DNA of 6,867 bases, taken from the IMG/VR virus record IMGVR_UViG_2690316345_000004; one strand, 5' to 3'. The notes under the pieces were generated by a model that saw only the letters and a program-made list of their open reading frames with translations, was not told the DNA's origin and ran no database searches. The position numbers were made by a program, and so were the translations under genes. Shown here piece by piece: positions 644 to 6,867 of this stretch. This DNA comes from a virus (Duplodnaviria; Heunggongvirae; Uroviricota; Caudoviricetes). Every line of letters starts with the position of its first letter. Positions within the stretch are counted from its first letter, which is position 1.

Positions 644-1072
644 ATGCTAAAAACTAGGCTTATCACTGATTACATCAATTCATTAGTAGGTCAGGAGTTC
701 GTTCAAGGCGAGAATGATTGCAATTTAATTGCATGTAAGATCATCGATATTCTCGCTGGCACTGACCTATATAATTCTCTTTATAAAAAATATTCAACGA
801 AAGAAGAAGGCTTGAAAGTCTGTAAAGAACTTAGTGGATATACCAATATCCTCCAGCCTATCAAAGAACATTTTAAATTAGTTACTGATGATTTACAGGA
901 CGGCGACCTATTGATCCGCGATCACAAATTAGGAAACCGTAAGTATTACTCCGTGACTCCTTATTATTCCGGCTATGGACTCGTTACCGAAGATGGAATC
1001 TGGACGACCAAGCCGATTTACGAAATTGATTATAACGATGCTTATCGCTTTGGGGGTGATTTATGGGCGTAG
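644..1072 (+). CDS. putative tail assembly protein with NlpC/P60-like Cys...His arrangement (lambda gpK-like C-terminal domain)
   Basis: ATG 644 is preceded by GGAGGT (631-636) at 7-nt spacing. The ORF-track start at TTG 401 would overlap the previous gene by about 200 nt and is rejected. The product has a Cys in a GENDCNLIAC context and a downstream GDLLIRDH segment, reminiscent of NlpC/P60 catalytic Cys/His motifs. Stop TAG 1070-1072 overlaps the next start (ATGGGCGTAG). Confidence 0.6.
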   Translation: MLKTRLITDYINSLVGQEFVQGENDCNLIACKIIDILAGTDLYNSLYKKYSTKEEGLKVCKELSGYTNILQPIKEHFKLVTDDLQDGDLLIRDHKLGNRKYYSVTPYYSGYGLVTEDGIWTTKPIYEIDYNDAYRFGGDLWA

Positions 1073-4000
1073 AAGTATTGGTCGGCGCGGTTATTGCTGG
1101 TGCGTCGGCTGGGATGGCTGCTGCTTCCGTGGCGGCAATTTCAACATTAGCGGCTGTTGCTATCGGTATTGGTGCTGGTGCATTGTCTTTGATTGCTTCC
1201 ACTGTAGGCGCACCGAAAACACCGAAGGTACAAAGCCCAGATAACGCGGTGACATTAGGAACATCAAACGATCCGAAAGCGGTGATACCAGTTATTTTCG
1301 GTGTTACTCGCACTGGTACAAACTGTGTTTACAAAGCAATTTCTAAGAAAGAAAACAATAAGTTAGTGCAAGTATTTTCTGTAGCCGAGGGTGAAATCGA
1401 CCATTACAAAGCACTCTTTATTGATAATAAAAATGTTCTTGTTGGTAAGAACATGACGATCCGTGATGGTATTCTCGATAAGGGCAACATTAAAGAAGAA
1501 TACCGTAAAGTGTTAGAAGTCGAGTTCCGCACGGGTAAGAATCCTAACACCGCATTGTCACTGGCAAAAACTCATTTAGGCTCAGACTGGACCGATGCTT
1601 ACAAGGGTAACGGCATTGCAACCATGTGTATTGTGTTACGTCGTGATGACAAATCTCTTGCTGCTGGTGTTGATATTCTCCAGCCAAATAGCCAGGTAGC
1701 AGTAGACGTTTGCGGCCTTAAAATCCGTAACCTTGAAACCAATGCTATTGAGGCTAGCACCAACGGCGTGGACCAGATTTTCCACTACCTAACAAATGAA
1801 AAATATGGTCTTAGTGTACCAATTGAAAACATCAACGTTGATTCATTCCTGAAAGTACGTTCTCAAGTTCGCCAGATGAATTTGCACTCTAACGGTGCAT
1901 GTGATCCGAACGCCAGCTTTAAAGAGAACTTGACCGGATTGATGCAGACTTTCGGCGGGGTGATGTTTGAATCCTTTGGACGTATTACTCTGAAACTGGA
2001 TGCTCCTGATATTGTTAAGCATACCTTCAATGAAGACAATATCATGATGGGTAAAGTTAACCTGAAAACAGGTGGCACTAACGGTTATTTCAATACCATT
2101 AACGCAATCTATCAGGAACCATCAATCGACTATTCAGAGCAAATGCTACGTTATCCGGCTGATGCTGAAAATGATGCTACTATCCGTCAAGATGGGCGCA
2201 TTATTGCTAAAGACGTAGAATATCGCTTTGTTAAAGATGAAAACCAGATTGACAAATTAGCGAGCATTGAACGAAATAAATCTCGTATTACTCAGGTTAT
2301 CAACTTCACTACTACCGATGCATTCAGCGCGGAAGTCTGGGACGTTATCAGCGTTACCCACGATGAATTGAAACTGAATAATTCACTTTGGCGTATTATC
2401 TCTATTGAGCGTAGCATTGATTCTGGTATTGCTGGTATTTTGTCTATCACCGCCACAGAATATAATTCTCAGATTTACACAGATCTGGATTATGCGGCTA
2501 AACCGGACAATAGACCAAGTGGTTTACCGGATTCAATGACAGTACAGAAGCCTACTAATTTCAGAATTAAGGCAACTGGCGAGACGATTTACGGTAAAAA
2601 TGTTACTTTGACATGGGATGCACCGGAAGATTTTAACCGCTACGGCTTCCAGATTGATTACCGTGTAAGCGGATCACCTAACTGGATTAAGCTCGGTCAG
2701 ACTTCACAGCAAATTTTCAATGTCAATGCACTGGCTAAAGATCGCTCCTACGATTACCGAGTTTGTGCTTTCGGTATCATCGCGCGATCCGATTGGGTAG
2801 AACTGATTAACCAGAATCCGACTGTTACCTATGAATTGCCGACTCCGGTTATTCGAATCAAAAATCAGGGTAGCACGCCAGGAACTTTCGAAGGTAATGA
2901 TCTGATTATCGAATGGGATAACCAGCAAGGCTTAGATGTTGAGATCAACGGTGAAACTAACAAGTTTAGTGACCTGTTTGAAGCATACATTATCAAGGTG
3001 ACTAACAAGGCTGGTAAGTCTATTCAGTACCGTACCCGCGATCCTGAATCATGGACTTATACGCTTGATATGAACCAGTTTAACGGCCTTTCGCGTCAAC
3101 TGACGGTAGAAGTATCAGCTAAGGGATATAACAACTCAGAGAGCGCCCCAGCGCGTTTAGTGGCTATCAACCCACAACATAAGCCAATGAAAGGTTTTAG
3201 TGCGCGTGGTGGCTTTAATACTGCGTTTGTTAGCTGGGCGGATGACGTAGAACATGACTATGCAGGGTCAATCATCCAGTATGCAACCGACAACACTTTC
3301 TCAGATGCAAGGGCAGTAAGCACGAATAGTGTTAGCCATACTTCCTTTGATATTGCTGACGGTGATTATTATATCCGTGGTGCTCACTACGATATTTTCG
3401 GTATGGATGATGCTGTTTGGTCTGAACCGTATTTCATGCAAATGAAATCTACCATTAGCTGGGACGATCAGGACAAAGAAGCACTGGAAGACCTGATTGG
3501 TTTACAAGATCGCTTAGATGAAACCATCGCTGATGCTATTGCTCAAGCTGGCGCTAATGCCGATGCTAAAATTGATGCAATGCATAAGCAAATCACTACC
3601 GAGACGGGTAAAACTGTTCAAGCCTCAGCCGATACCTTAAAGAGTCTGATTGCTTCTGGTGATAAGGCAAGTTCAACTAAGATTGATCAGGTTAAAGCTG
3701 AACTGAAAGGCGATATCACCAAAGAAGTTAGCGCATCTGCTACTACCCTGAAACAAGCAATTGCAACCAGTGAGGCAGCAAGCGCAAGTAAGATTGACCA
3801 AGTTCGGGTAGAAATGGATGGCAAGATTGCTGGTGTGAATCAGGAAGCAGATGTAAAAATCGATGCTTTGAAAGGAACCATTAACAGCAAATACAATCTG
3901 GCAGTTAATGCAGATGGTCGCGTGGCTGGCATTCACATGAGCGCAACCAACGATCCGGCACAACCGACTAAAATCATCTTTACGGCTGATAAAATTGCTG

Positions 4001-4815
4001 TAGCTCCGCAGAACGGGACCGATGTTTGCCCGTTTGGTATCGAAGGTAACAAGGTTTATCTCGATAATGCGATGATTCGTAATGCTGCAATTGGCACAGC
4101 CCAGATTAATGATGCGGCAATTACTACCGCTAAGATCGGAAATGCTGCAATTAACAGCGCGAAGATTCAGGACGGGGCGATCACCAATGCGAAGATCGTA
4201 AACGGCGCAATTGATAATGCTAAAATTGGTAACTATATCCAGTCTTCAAACTGGAACGGATCTACCGGATGGCATATCAACAAGAACGGGTCCGCTACGT
4301 TCATGAACGCTACCGTTAAAGGTAATATCACGGCTGATTCTGGTACTCTGAACAACGTCACGATTAACTCTAGCTGTGTTATTAAGGGTATGCTTGAAGC
4401 TACTCAGGTTAAGGGTGATTTCGTTAAGGTGATTGGTAAGAAATTCCCTCATCGTCAACAAAACTGGCCTGATGGCACTGTTACGGTAAGGGTGGAAGAT
4501 GATCATAAGTTTGATCGCCAAATTGTGATTCCAGCTATTCACCATAACGGGTCTGTTCGTCGTGGCGAAAGTAGTGATCATTGGGACACTTGCCGATTAA
4601 TCGTTAAGAAAAATGGCTCTGTTCTATATGATCGCACGGCTACTTCTGGCAGCATGTACACAGGCGTTATTGACATGCCAGCGGGTAAAGGTGCTGTAAC
4701 GTTAACATTCCAAGTTATTTGTGATGGTGTTAACAACTATAACCCAAGTGCATATATCAGCGATCTAACAGTAATGGTAACTAAAAAAGCCACTACTGGT
4801 ATTACTGTTTCTTAA
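1063..4815 (+). CDS. central tail fiber / host specificity protein, lambda gpJ-like, with a gpI-like N-terminal module
   Basis: 1250-codon ORF with ATG 1063 preceded by GGGGGTGA (1052-1059). The C-terminal ~160 aa (EDDHKFDRQIVIP, IDMPAGKGAVTLTF, DLTVMVTKKATTGITVS) closely resemble the recalled C-terminal receptor-binding region of lambda J (TDDHPFDRQIVV, VDMPAGRGNVILTF, DVQVMVIKKQALGISVV). The middle holds FN3-like beta-sandwich segments and an Ala/Lys/Asp-rich coiled-coil stretch. The first ~95 aa are a Gly/Ala-rich hydrophobic segment followed by APKTPKV...VIPVIFGVTRTG, resembling the C-terminal half of lambda gpI. Confidence 0.92.
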   Translation: MGVEVLVGAVIAGASAGMAAASVAAISTLAAVAIGIGAGALSLIASTVGAPKTPKVQSPDNAVTLGTSNDPKAVIPVIFGVTRTGTNCVYKAISKKENNKLVQVFSVAEGEIDHYKALFIDNKNVLVGKNMTIRDGILDKGNIKEEYRKVLEVEFRTGKNPNTALSLAKTHLGSDWTDAYKGNGIATMCIVLRRDDKSLAAGVDILQPNSQVAVDVCGLKIRNLETNAIEASTNGVDQIFHYLTNEKYGLSVPIENINVDSFLKVRSQVRQMNLHSNGACDPNASFKENLTGLMQTFGGVMFESFGRITLKLDAPDIVKHTFNEDNIMMGKVNLKTGGTNGYFNTINAIYQEPSIDYSEQMLRYPADAENDATIRQDGRIIAKDVEYRFVKDENQIDKLASIERNKSRITQVINFTTTDAFSAEVWDVISVTHDELKLNNSLWRIISIERSIDSGIAGILSITATEYNSQIYTDLDYAAKPDNRPSGLPDSMTVQKPTNFRIKATGETIYGKNVTLTWDAPEDFNRYGFQIDYRVSGSPNWIKLGQTSQQIFNVNALAKDRSYDYRVCAFGIIARSDWVELINQNPTVTYELPTPVIRIKNQGSTPGTFEGNDLIIEWDNQQGLDVEINGETNKFSDLFEAYIIKVTNKAGKSIQYRTRDPESWTYTLDMNQFNGLSRQLTVEVSAKGYNNSESAPARLVAINPQHKPMKGFSARGGFNTAFVSWADDVEHDYAGSIIQYATDNTFSDARAVSTNSVSHTSFDIADGDYYIRGAHYDIFGMDDAVWSEPYFMQMKSTISWDDQDKEALEDLIGLQDRLDETIADAIAQAGANADAKIDAMHKQITTETGKTVQASADTLKSLIASGDKASSTKIDQVKAELKGDITKEVSASATTLKQAIATSEAASASKIDQVRVEMDGKIAGVNQEADVKIDALKGTINSKYNLAVNADGRVAGIHMSATNDPAQPTKIIFTADKIAVAPQNGTDVCPFGIEGNKVYLDNAMIRNAAIGTAQINDAAITTAKIGNAAINSAKIQDGAITNAKIVNGAIDNAKIGNYIQSSNWNGSTGWHINKNGSATFMNATVKGNITADSGTLNNVTINSSCVIKGMLEATQVKGDFVKVIGKKFPHRQQNWPDGTVTVRVEDDHKFDRQIVIPAIHHNGSVRRGESSDHWDTCRLIVKKNGSVLYDRTATSGSMYTGVIDMPAGKGAVTLTFQVICDGVNNYNPSAYISDLTVMVTKKATTGITVS
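4078..4227 (+). repeat. five tandem 30-nt (10-codon) repeats inside the J-like CDS
   Basis: Directly visible: RNAAIGTAQI / NDAAITTAKI / GNAAINSAKI / QDGAITNAKI / VNGAIDNAKI, each encoded by a 30-nt unit (e.g. aatgctgcaatt...aagat[ct]) in head-to-tail register. Confidence 0.85.
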
Positions 4816-4833
4816 AATTTAATTTTAATAATT

Positions 4834-4875
4834 AATCCCGCTTAATTCTTTTGGGTTAGGCGGGATTATTTTTAT
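4834..4875 (+). terminator. putative rho-independent terminator after the tail-fiber gene
   Basis: Inverted repeat aatcccgctt (4834-4843) / aggcgggatt (4858-4867), a 10-bp stem with one G-U pair and a 14-nt loop, followed by ATTTTTAT (4868-4875). It lies 19 nt after the J stop. Confidence 0.55.
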
Positions 4876-4920
4876 CTAAATAATTCTGCCATTAAACTAT
4901 ATAAAAATATCGGGGGCGTA

Positions 4921-5199
4921 ATGACTGAAATTATATATGGCGGTATCGGTGTTATCGCCTTAATTTGTGGTGGATTATGGAGGCTTCACCGAAATCAATT
5001 AGCCACAGAAAATAGATTGTCGAAATTAGAATCCAGCGACGCATTGTTAAACCAGAAGTTTGAGACGATGCAGAATAACCATACTCAGATTGCTGAACGT
5101 GTTTACCAAATGGAACAAACACTACACGGTATAGAGAAGAAAGTGGTTGCGATGGACGCCAAATTTGACCAAGTTCTCGACATACTCAAACAAAAATAA
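4921..5199 (+). CDS. hypothetical membrane-anchored coiled-coil protein (92 aa)
   Basis: ATG 4921 preceded by GGGGG (4912-4916). One N-terminal hydrophobic segment (IIYGGIGVIALICGGLW), a basic flank (RLHRNQ), then a heptad-like helical region. Ends with three in-frame stops TAATAATAA (5197-5205). Confidence 0.7.
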   Translation: MTEIIYGGIGVIALICGGLWRLHRNQLATENRLSKLESSDALLNQKFETMQNNHTQIAERVYQMEQTLHGIEKKVVAMDAKFDQVLDILKQK

Positions 5200-5217
5200 T
5201 AATAAAGGGGTGAATAT

Positions 5218-5388
5218 ATGAAGAATAAACTTAAGAAATATTTTGGTTATCTCTTGATTGTCGCCCTCACTTATAACGTAGCAATTAGACCTCTGCTTAC
5301 GTCCTTTGGGCTTGAACTCCCGGCTATGACCGTGGATGAACAATTGCTCAGGACACTGGCGGGGGTCTTTTCGTTATTAGGGGGCTAA
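5218..5388 (+). CDS. hypothetical small hydrophobic protein (56 aa), absent from the supplied ORF track
   Basis: ATG 5218 preceded by AAAGGGG (5205-5211). Translation: MKNKLKKYFGYLLIVALTYNVAIRPLLTSFGLELPAMTVDEQLLRTLAGVFSLLGG. Lys-rich N-terminus followed by a hydrophobic stretch. Stop TAA 5386-5388 lies 1 nt before the next ATG (TAACATG), indicating translational coupling; it fills the gap between two well-supported genes. Confidence 0.5.
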   Translation: MKNKLKKYFGYLLIVALTYNVAIRPLLTSFGLELPAMTVDEQLLRTLAGVFSLLGG

Positions 5389-5389
5389 C

Positions 5390-5995
5390 ATGGCTAATCC
5401 AATAATCACATCCAATATTGATAAAGTAAAAAAAGATATCAAGAGTTGGAAACAGAAAGCTAGTAATAGCTTTCATAGGGATTTGGGTTTAGCGGTCATA
5501 GATGAGCGGGTAAAGTTGCAGAAGAAAGTCAATTCAAGGATAGATCGACCGACCAAGTTCACACAGAAAGCGGTCAATTCATACAACCGGATACGCTCAA
5601 GCGGTAAAACGTCTTACCATAGTGTTTTCATCATGAAGAATCAGGAAAAATACTTAAAATATTACTTTGAAGGTGGTAATAATATCGAGAAATTTGTTCC
5701 TGTAACTGATGACCGAACTAACCAGTTTGGTAACATTCCACAACTCAGAAACGGTAAGAAAATAGGGAAGTATGTAACCACAAAATCTAAGACTGGTAAA
5801 ATACTGCTTCTCGATCCATCCGTTAAAGCCGACATGAACAACAAGAAAAAGCTAGGGAAGCGACTTGTTGCAGTGTTGAAGAAAACAGACCGTAGTAACA
5901 TCATGGGTAGTTGGAAAGATAATGAGAAAACGATGAAGAAGAATATCCAGAAGAAGATGAAAAAGCACTTCATGGGTAAAATCAACTTCGTTTAA
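5390..5995 (+). CDS. hypothetical lysine-rich basic protein (201 aa)
   Basis: ATG 5390 preceded by AGGGGG (5378-5383). Very Lys-rich, especially at the C-terminus (KKNIQKKMKKHFMGKINFV), with no obvious hydrophobic segment. The antisense ORF 5662-5985 is a low-complexity mirror of the Lys codons and is rejected. Confidence 0.75.
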   Translation: MANPIITSNIDKVKKDIKSWKQKASNSFHRDLGLAVIDERVKLQKKVNSRIDRPTKFTQKAVNSYNRIRSSGKTSYHSVFIMKNQEKYLKYYFEGGNNIEKFVPVTDDRTNQFGNIPQLRNGKKIGKYVTTKSKTGKILLLDPSVKADMNNKKKLGKRLVAVLKKTDRSNIMGSWKDNEKTMKKNIQKKMKKHFMGKINFV

Positions 5996-6033: not shown

Positions 6034-6381
6034 ATGGCTAAAAATATTTTCACTGAATTTCCTACTTATCCGGTCGACCAGCTTTCCGGTATTTTTATCA
6101 ATGGCATTAGCCCTGAATCAATGACACTTGATTACGAGGCGAAGAGAGTAAAGCATAAACAATTCAAGCAAATGATCCGCGATGATGGTAACGGGTTAGT
6201 GTTTTGTGTTGCGACACTCGCTAAACGTCCTAAATACCGCTTCCGTGTAGGGCAGGAGATTGATGTAGTTAACCCTTACAACTTCAATTGTATTGGTGAT
6301 GCACGAGCGGTATGCATAGGCACAGCACCTTATTACATTAAGGGACTCAGATTTATTGGGTATCTTATGCAATACATCTAA
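6034..6381 (+). CDS. hypothetical protein (115 aa)
   Basis: ATG 6034 with GGGGG 7 nt upstream. Ends TAA 6379-6381, immediately followed by the RBS of the next gene. No family recognised from sequence. Confidence 0.7.
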   Translation: MAKNIFTEFPTYPVDQLSGIFINGISPESMTLDYEAKRVKHKQFKQMIRDDGNGLVFCVATLAKRPKYRFRVGQEIDVVNPYNFNCIGDARAVCIGTAPYYIKGLRFIGYLMQYI

Positions 6382-6391
6382 AGGGGGTAAT

Positions 6392-6745
6392 ATGTTAAGC
6401 AAGCATTTTTCTCGCAAGGAATTTAAATGTAAATGCGGAAAATGTGATTATGATACTATCGACGCTGAACTGCTGGTAATTCTTGAGGATGTACGCGAAC
6501 ACTTCGGGAAACCAGTAATTATTAACAGCGGGAACCGTTGTCCGACTCATAATAAGAATGTAGGCGGTGCAACCAATAGCTACCATGTTCGAGGCCGTGC
6601 GGTTGATATTGTAGTGAAAGGCGTCTCGCCTGATATTGTCCATGCTTATCTTGATGGGAAATATCCTACCAAGTATGGCTTAGGAAAGTATAAAACCTTC
6701 ACGCACATTGATAGTCGTTCAACGAAATCACGCTGGCATGGATAA
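6392..6745 (+). CDS. peptidase M15 family zinc metallopeptidase (Peptidase_M15_3 / YcbK-like fold), putative endolysin
   Basis: ATG 6392 preceded by AGGGGG (6382-6387); the TTG 6356 start in the ORF track is rejected. Motifs INSGNRCPTHNKNVGGATNSYHVRGRAVD and FTHID match the His-x6-Asp ... His zinc-binding signature of M15 peptidases. No signal peptide or SAR-like N-terminus. Confidence 0.85.
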   Translation: MLSKHFSRKEFKCKCGKCDYDTIDAELLVILEDVREHFGKPVIINSGNRCPTHNKNVGGATNSYHVRGRAVDIVVKGVSPDIVHAYLDGKYPTKYGLGKYKTFTHIDSRSTKSRWHG

Positions 6746-6816
6746 AATTAAAGCGCCTCTAGTGGGTAATGCCGATCAGTTAAGGATCAGTTGACCGATC
6801 CAGTGGCTGTGTAAGA

Positions 6817-6850
6817 ATCCGGAAACGCTCACTTGTTTCCGGATTTTTTT
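6817..6850 (+). terminator. rho-independent terminator
   Basis: Perfect 10-bp inverted repeat atccggaaac (6817-6826) / gtttccggat (6835-6844) with an 8-nt loop, followed by a run of seven T (6844-6850). Confidence 0.7.
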
Positions 6851-6867
6851 ATGCACATTGGACAGGC

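Follow-up and report, generated by a model that had tools for sequence, protein, structure and literature searches.

The stretch of DNA analysed here (hereafter the window: 6,867 nucleotides of the IMG/VR record IMGVR_UViG_2690316345_000004, from a virus of the Caudoviricetes) is the distal end of a prophage late region. Between its tail-tip gene and its endolysin-type gene lies an open reading frame (ORF) of 56 codons, hereafter p56, which, judged by comparison of sequences, proves to be a genuine and conserved prophage gene under purifying selection (dN/dS <1). Its product belongs, as a divergent member, to PHROG 2024, which also includes the product of a 66-codon ORF of phage T4. Tentatively, and knowing that other readings compete with this one, we take its product for a late membrane-acting, lysis-associated protein working with p92, the product of the gene just upstream. 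The features of the window to which the argument refers are the following (aa, amino acids; p92, p201 and p115 are named, like p56, by their length):

644-1072: DUF6950 protein
1063-4815, + strand: J-like tail-tip/central fibre gene (J), always ahead of the block discussed below (Pfam Phage_Tail_Tip and Ig_GpJ_C, PHROG tail fibre families, synteny)
4833-4877, + strand: intrinsic terminator past the tail-tip gene (16-bp stem and T-run), then the conserved TCTAAATAA motif (terminator scan)
4921-5199, + strand: p92, 92 aa, N-terminal transmembrane helix and coiled coil (ORF, hydropathy, synteny)
5204-5210, + strand: AAAGGGG, the Shine-Dalgarno sequence (SD) of p56, 7 nt ahead of its ATG (read directly)
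5218-5388, + strand: p56, 56 codons, predicted small membrane protein and divergent PHROG 2024 member (ORF, homologues, selection, profile links)
5239-5304, + strand: codons 8-29 of p56, predicted hydrophobic transmembrane helix with Tyr19-Asn20 and Pro25 (hydropathy, AlphaFold2, alignment)
5338-5379, + strand: codons 41-54 of p56, predicted short amphipathic/hydrophobic C-terminal helix (AlphaFold2, hydrophobic moment 0.54)
5380-5384, + strand: GGGGG within the last two codons of p56, the SD of p201 (read directly)
5390-5995, + strand: p201, 201 aa, very basic (pI 10.4), apparently coupled in translation to p56, phrog_1924 family
6034-6381, + strand: p115, 115 aa, conserved, no family detected; closes the conserved block
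6392-6745, + strand: Peptidase_M15_3 endolysin-type gene, hereafter M15 (Pfam PF08291 3.7e-28, phrog_894 endolysin 2e-45, PGAP coordinates)

The 56-codon gene and its conservation

The frame of p56 opens with the ATG at 5218, closes with the TAA at 5386-5388 and encodes MKNKLKKYFGYLLIVALTYNVAIRPLLTSFGLELPAMTVDEQLLRTLAGVFSLLGG, a product that contains no Cys. The upstream gene ends at 5199, which leaves a gap of 18 nt, and the ATG of p201 follows at 5390, a single nucleotide past the stop, in a stop-1nt-ATG junction through which the two genes would be translationally coupled. An initial annotation, made from the letters of the window, had described just such an ORF, with AAAGGGG as ribosome-binding site and a Cys-free product that is rich in Lys at its N-terminus and hydrophobic in its core, an ORF which fits the intergenic space and is coupled to the next gene, and its description proves to be correct in each of these respects.

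The length of the ORF alone is weak evidence for a gene, since about 3% of starts would be expected to stay open for 56 codons (an estimate from base composition) and in the window, which is AT-rich, 53 ORFs reach 30 aa or more, the majority of them spurious. The shortness of p56, and the GGGGG in its last codons that doubles as the SD of p201, could indeed be taken to mean that this is a chance ORF which makes no protein, its sequence being kept as a spacer or as the ribosome-binding region of p201; because of this double use, part of the conservation at the C-terminus could be at the level of nucleotides. What is seen in the relatives of p56, however, makes such an explanation hardly credible. 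A search of 5.8 billion proteins found 19 protein clusters which carry the same 56-residue protein at 77-98% identity (four of them called from an upstream start, giving 74-77 aa), and profiles run against 1.8 billion representatives brought in three distant relatives (54-66 aa, 43-61% identity), all of which sit between homologues of p92 and p201; a profile scan of genome contigs gave no p56 relative. At 42-62% identity the start and stop positions and the open frame are kept, and insertions and deletions comprise whole codons. Similarly, an AAAGGGG(G)-type motif stands at unchanged distance in relatives down to 42% protein identity, and the succession of GGGG run, stop, one base and ATG is kept in five of the loci compared (labelled L002, L031, L034, L036 and L039), the start of p201 overlapping the end of p56 or lying 2 nt away in loci of the L042 type. 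Differences at codon positions 1/2/3 amount, for example, to 15/15/29 and 25/12/35, with third positions differing most and second positions least in the distant relatives, and in the close ones the differences are mostly or solely synonymous (dN/dS 0-0.65). The minus-strand ORF that overlaps p56, in addition, is not preserved in relatives, and homologues recognisable at the protein level occur in unrelated contexts in 693 T4-like records. Because frame, length, ribosome-binding site and junction are all conserved, with a third-position bias and dN/dS below 1, we regard p56 as a real gene; the conservation test suggested with the initial annotation, synonymous sites included, has in this way come out in its favour.

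An extension of p56 by frameshift or read-through was considered and rejected, as the -1 extension is short and unconserved and the +1 frame enters p201 merely through the stop-1nt-ATG layout. The ORF had also been called unlisted, and of a kind that annotation often misses. This holds for the ORF track that was then used, and for homologues in the T4 reference and in the phage record DCP80, but not for p56 itself, which PGAP/RefSeq already list as a hypothetical protein (WP_001406248.1 or WP_157943108.1). In itself p56 is therefore ordinary, a hypothetical small membrane protein that is not new to public annotation, and its novelty is that of a divergent member of a catalogued family.

The predicted protein and its family

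The hydropathy of p56 peaks over residues 8-27, and this hydrophobic segment is the best-conserved part of the protein. AlphaFold2, run on 14 sequences, predicts a helix at residues 2-29, a loop at 30-40 and a second helix at 41-54 (mean pLDDT 78), the latter being amphipathic and, as modelled, too short to cross the bilayer alone. Four N-terminal lysines would, by the positive-inside rule, place the N-terminus in the cytoplasm, and p56 is thus predicted to be an N-in inner-membrane protein with one transmembrane helix, a short periplasmic loop and a short C-terminal helix, in agreement with the signal-anchor-like small membrane peptide that had been proposed at first. In the transmembrane helix, Tyr and Asn would form a polar face, which is conserved, and a Pro would introduce a kink; the loop follows the pattern G-x-x-L-P ... 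D. Across an alignment of the whole superfamily, the Asn of the transmembrane helix ([YW]-N; Asn20 in p56) is the sole invariant column, whilst one Lys, two Pro (including Pro25) and a C-terminal Gly are near-invariant. Association between helices in a membrane is classically driven by buried Asn residues; since the invariant Asn of p56 is buried in the transmembrane helix, the protein may well oligomerise in the cytoplasmic membrane through this residue.

Searches of Pfam, NCBIfam and PDB sequences gave no match for p56. PHROG 2024 was matched by 7 of the 12 members of the p56 family, which match no other PHROG (best E 4e-4; p56 directly, 0.0054). An unannotated 57-codon ORF of DCP80, directly upstream of that record's p201 homologue, matches PHROG 2024 at 4e-4, and two syntenic homologues do so at 5.8e-5 (L042) and 4.4e-10 (L043). 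A scan of IMG/VR for relatives of p201 yielded 12 loci in which a p56-like ORF lies immediately upstream, with E between 3e-9 and 5e-4 against a hidden Markov model (HMM). The L043 homologue, used as query, retrieves the 66-codon ORF of T4-like phages, and hhalign closes the chain, the L042 type being joined to the E. coli type with 97.6% probability and to the T4 type with 96.4%. On these matches p56 is assigned to PHROG 2024, as a distant member, and the common build of the family agrees with this: PHROG 2024 proteins are 55-72 aa long and begin with a basic N-terminus; one transmembrane helix carries [YW]-N followed by Pro, the loop reads G-x-x-[LI]-P, and past an acidic residue the protein closes with a short hydrophobic stretch that ends near a Gly. 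They differ in setting, the siphophage gene standing within the block of J and coupled to p201, whereas the T4-like copy is a lone gene.

In T4 the homologue has 66 codons and occupies 17738-17938 of NC_000866.4 (3239-3439 in our locus L191), on the + strand between dam and 61. It is preceded by the near-consensus late-promoter-like motif GATAAATA and a GGAGG SD, runs on the strand opposite to the surrounding replication genes, is monocistronic and lies far from the tail genes, and from these signals it is apparently expressed late. The RefSeq reference annotation of T4 misses it; in the 693 T4-like records that conserve it, it is mostly called 'hypothetical protein' or 'putative membrane protein'. 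Literature searches found no papers on phrog_2024, and nothing relevant on ribosome profiling of small T4 ORFs. One record, DCP80 (PQ671644.1 18623-29099, L005), is classed as a T4-like Gaprivervirus and has a T4-type copy of its own elsewhere plus a siphovirus-type J block, in which two ORFs are unannotated, one for a transmembrane/coiled-coil protein of 153 aa and the other for the 57-aa homologue of p56; the record may be a chimeric assembly.

It is tempting to see in PHROG 2024 a widespread new class of late single-pass membrane proteins, common to T4-like myophages and temperate siphophages and possibly with a new role, although we hold this to be unlikely. Such a role could be that of a two-component non-canonical holin made of p92 and p56, or that of an inner-membrane anchor for tail-tip, baseplate or packaging complexes (p201, endonuclease VII) during assembly. 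Whatever the role, the link from a block of E. coli/Salmonella prophages to an unannotated and highly conserved ORF of T4 is the most useful outcome of this work, as it makes PHROG 2024 experimentally tractable: since T4, the best-studied phage, carries a homologue, a knockout there could assign a function to the whole family.

The conserved block and its setting

J, p92, p56, p201 and p115 form a block which is intact in every siphophage lineage found, and it is the neighbour downstream that varies. After the block comes the M15 endolysin in the E. coli type, L034 and L036, an unrelated lysozyme, past one minus-strand ORF, in DCP80, cargo genes in L039, a recombinase in L053, and the tail chaperones G/T with the tape measure in the L042/L109 type, where the tail operon encloses the block, with the major tail protein gene ahead of it and those genes behind. 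p92 is upstream of p56 in all of these lineages, either adjacent or separated just by an endonuclease VII gene, as in DCP80 and the L042 type. The order in L109 and L110 (IMG/VR 2627853687_000004 and 2767802166_000003) is major tail protein, DUF6950, J, p92, endonuclease VII, p56, p201, p115, G, T and tape measure; in L110 host-like genes appear soon past the tape measure, and no homologues of the distal tail protein or the DUF2163 hub were seen in the stretch of these two loci that was examined.

That the five genes stay together while their surroundings change, and that they do so inside a tail operon in the L042/L109 type, would suit a role of p56, with p92, p201 and p115, as accessory to the tail-tip module of J. 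From a place in the membrane it could then assist assembly or chaperone the hydrophobic N-terminus of J; alternatively it could be a virion-carried or ejected protein which helps to form a conduit for DNA through the inner membrane. The J-like protein does have, in its N-terminus (window 1063-1200), two Gly/Ala-rich hydrophobic segments that score transmembrane-like, which is unusual for J and reminiscent of tape measures, and the family matched by p201, phrog_1924 (best E 8e-7), bears the label 'minor tail protein'. This label is doubtful, however, because the wider p201 family adjoins not tail genes but terminase genes, being mostly located directly upstream of Nu1-type terS and gpA-type terL. 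In addition, a conserved terminator parts J from the rest of the block in E. coli-type lineages, the T4-like homologue of p56 is far from any tail gene, and p56 has no structural similarity to any known tail protein. A tail-tip-linked role is doubtful, and even so nearly as likely as the lysis-associated role.

p201 contains 48 K+R among its 201 residues; its AlphaFold2 model is poor (pLDDT 54), its resemblance to the lysozyme inhibitor MliC is not significant (NCBIfam E=0.071 and PDB 3f6z E=0.24, over the same residues), and its gene is mosaic between near-identical prophages, with 32% identity between flanking genes of 93-100%. Searches of phages by tblastn with p92 and p115 gave nothing useful.

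The terminator behind J (4833-4868) covaries in its stem in L034, L036 and L039, where its position and the TCTAAATAA motif that follows it are both kept, which suggests that the genes from p92 to M15 form a separately controlled unit. The motif could be the promoter element of this unit; the interval from the terminator to p92 contains no sigma-70-type promoter. Being, by prediction, an inner-membrane protein whose gene comes after a receptor-binding one, behind a terminator with a possible promoter, p56 might also serve superinfection exclusion or immunity and keep phages that enter by the same route from delivering their DNA; exclusion genes for small membrane proteins or lipoproteins are found next to tail genes or among them in HK97 (gp15), T5 (llp) and T1/phi80 (cor). 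HK97 gp15, as a small inner-membrane protein encoded among or just past tail genes, offers the closest likeness of this type. Unlike a moron, however, p56 has no promoter of its own, its composition is ordinary (GC 0.44, against 0.37-0.44 in its neighbours), and it is present in every lineage with the J block. It also diverges at the pace of J, p92, p115 and M15 (identities of 42-62% in p56, 56-66% in J and 56-64% in M15), which together with the unshifted GC marks it as a core gene, a slowly diverging, deeply conserved and tightly coupled member of the four genes past J. The T4 homologue, moreover, has a late-type promoter, whereas the exclusion genes of T4 are early. No evidence was obtained for the exclusion factor that the initial annotation offered as one possible function, and we consider it distinctly improbable.

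The family of p92 is weakly matched to the holin phrog_1296 (5.8e-6), to XhlA-type hemolysin and, like its 153-aa equivalent in DCP80, to Rz-like spanin PHROGs (5e-4 to 1e-3). If p92 were an inner-membrane analogue of i-spanins, p56, which is directly downstream of it, could be its periplasmic, non-lipoprotein partner in disrupting the outer membrane, its gene standing where a separated o-spanin gene would; the annotation of the complete prophage shows no canonical pair of spanins. Against this, p56 and almost all of its relatives lack the Cys and the lipobox of an o-spanin, the hydrophobic segment is their most conserved part, unlike a cleaved signal peptide, the relative L034 has a T4-type spanin gene elsewhere, and in several lineages the endonuclease VII gene intervenes between p92 and p56. 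A spanin partnership is therefore very improbable.

As for the element as a whole, a prophage matching the window (apart from its IS4 end) is present in 55 of 5,426 complete E. coli genomes. The copy in strain RMDEC332 belongs to an element of ~40 kb with a large serine recombinase at its end, the insertion of which has split hicB; p56 occupies 2384127-2384297 of NZ_CM177021.1 there. The final ~100 bases of the window are IS4 (6763-6867, 99% identical to InsG-bearing IS4), directly past the M15 gene, and this is the sole match that nucleotide searches found among cultured phages; other copies of the prophage carry cargo genes at this place. The slot between endolysin and serine recombinase is in fact one of variable cargo, with a Kiwa pair (KwaA/KwaB) at 7733-9375 of L036 and a minus-strand T4-type spanin-like gene at 7448-8022 of L034. 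The start of the M15 peptidase is put by PGAP at the ATG at 6392 (117 aa), and the longest ORF (6356-6745) begins with a TTG at 6356 and overlaps the end of p115.

A possible lysis-associated role and known systems

The prophage family has an endolysin and no recognisable holin or spanins (the annotation of the complete prophage has none of canonical type); for the membrane steps of its lysis, p92 and p56 are the candidates that suggest themselves. Late expression of p56 is suggested by its orientation, shared with the tail genes and immediately downstream of them, and by the near-consensus late promoter and strong SD of the T4 copy. The context is consistent with lysis in several ways: the conserved and covarying terminator divides J from p92, p56, p201, p115 and M15, an endolysin ends this unit in the E. 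coli type, L034 and L036, a lysozyme lies one gene further in DCP80, and the weak matches of the p92 family include a holin, spanins and XhlA. In size and predicted topology (56 aa, at least one predicted transmembrane helix) p56 is comparable to a holin. If this interpretation is correct, p56 and p92 would act on the cytoplasmic membrane at the end of the late programme, where p56, as a holin-like or lysis-accessory protein, would help the signal-less M15 endolysin, encoded three genes downstream, to reach the cell wall.

Several observations weigh against this interpretation, and they are the reason why we hold it tentatively. The endolysin, where present, lies in one co-oriented run of genes with p56 and is separated from it by two non-membrane genes (E. 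coli type, L034, L036), the lysozyme of DCP80 by three, and no endolysin is near the block in L039, L053 and the L042/L109 type, where cargo, a recombinase and tail genes follow instead; a pure 'lysis cassette' reading is weakened accordingly. The lysis system of T4 (t, e, rI, rIII, pseT.2/3) is regarded as complete, yet T4-like phages carry a homologue of p56. The C-terminus of p56 (...LAGVFSLLGG) lacks the hydrophilic charged tail of holins. Another holin candidate is available, too, in a 92-aa protein with three predicted transmembrane helices, encoded at 14551-14829 of L033 beside the annotated terS and matching no PHROG; neither this protein nor a lipoprotein, the other membrane candidate of the prophage, has an informative match.

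The only lead from p56 itself to a known holin concerns Phage_holin_1 (PF04531), the phi LC3-type family of Firmicutes phages. In 50,697 phage records, the sole tblastn match of p56 is the holin of Listeria phage LP-P111 (E=7, 96% query coverage), a clear member of that family (4.5e-25). With the alignment of E. coli-type p56, hhalign gives 92.9% against this holin and 93.7% against an alignment of 23 holin sequences, the score of 38 comparing with a mean of 10.7, a standard deviation of 2.5 and a maximum of 22.5 in shuffles (150 column shuffles per alignment, 300 in total), and when 3009 ORFs were ranked with a holin HMM, all p56 members came first. The likeness is collinear over the first ~59 residues of these holins, i.e., the first two-thirds, and extends to a basic N-terminus, the first transmembrane helix, an FG-x-x-x-P loop and the start of the second helix (VF-LLG). 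Even so, the independent profiles of the T4 and L042 types reach just 9.4% and 9.7% probability against Phage_holin_1, with scores within the range of the shuffles; pooling all sequences of the p56 superfamily lowers the match to 66%, and neither p56 nor 12 relatives match PF04531, even at E up to 10. The alignment covers holin residues 24-58 solely; p56 breaks off halfway through the second helix and has neither GVVNDPTT, the best-conserved motif of the holin family, nor a charged tail. Since the template was picked by its likeness to the query, independent profiles stay at about 9%, and half of the second helix and the motif are missing, this is to be read as resemblance and not as homology, and membership of p56 in the family is rejected. 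Neither the holin modulator nor the toxin that the initial annotation had also suggested is established, the single holin lead failing with independent profiles. The match of one p56 relative to GTA_holin_3TM (PF11351), at E=0.24, is not significant.

The arrangement described here also recalls a known system, the lysis region of PBSX, xhlA-xhlB-xlyA. There is no significant sequence relationship of p92 and p56 to XhlA and XhlB, and two soluble genes stand between p56 and the endolysin, which in several lineages is missing from this place. PBSX nevertheless encodes a two-protein membrane module for lysis past its tail genes and ahead of its endolysin, and the order of parts is the same in the E. 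coli type: tail genes, a transmembrane/coiled-coil protein (p92), a small membrane protein predicted to form a hairpin (p56), and an endolysin.

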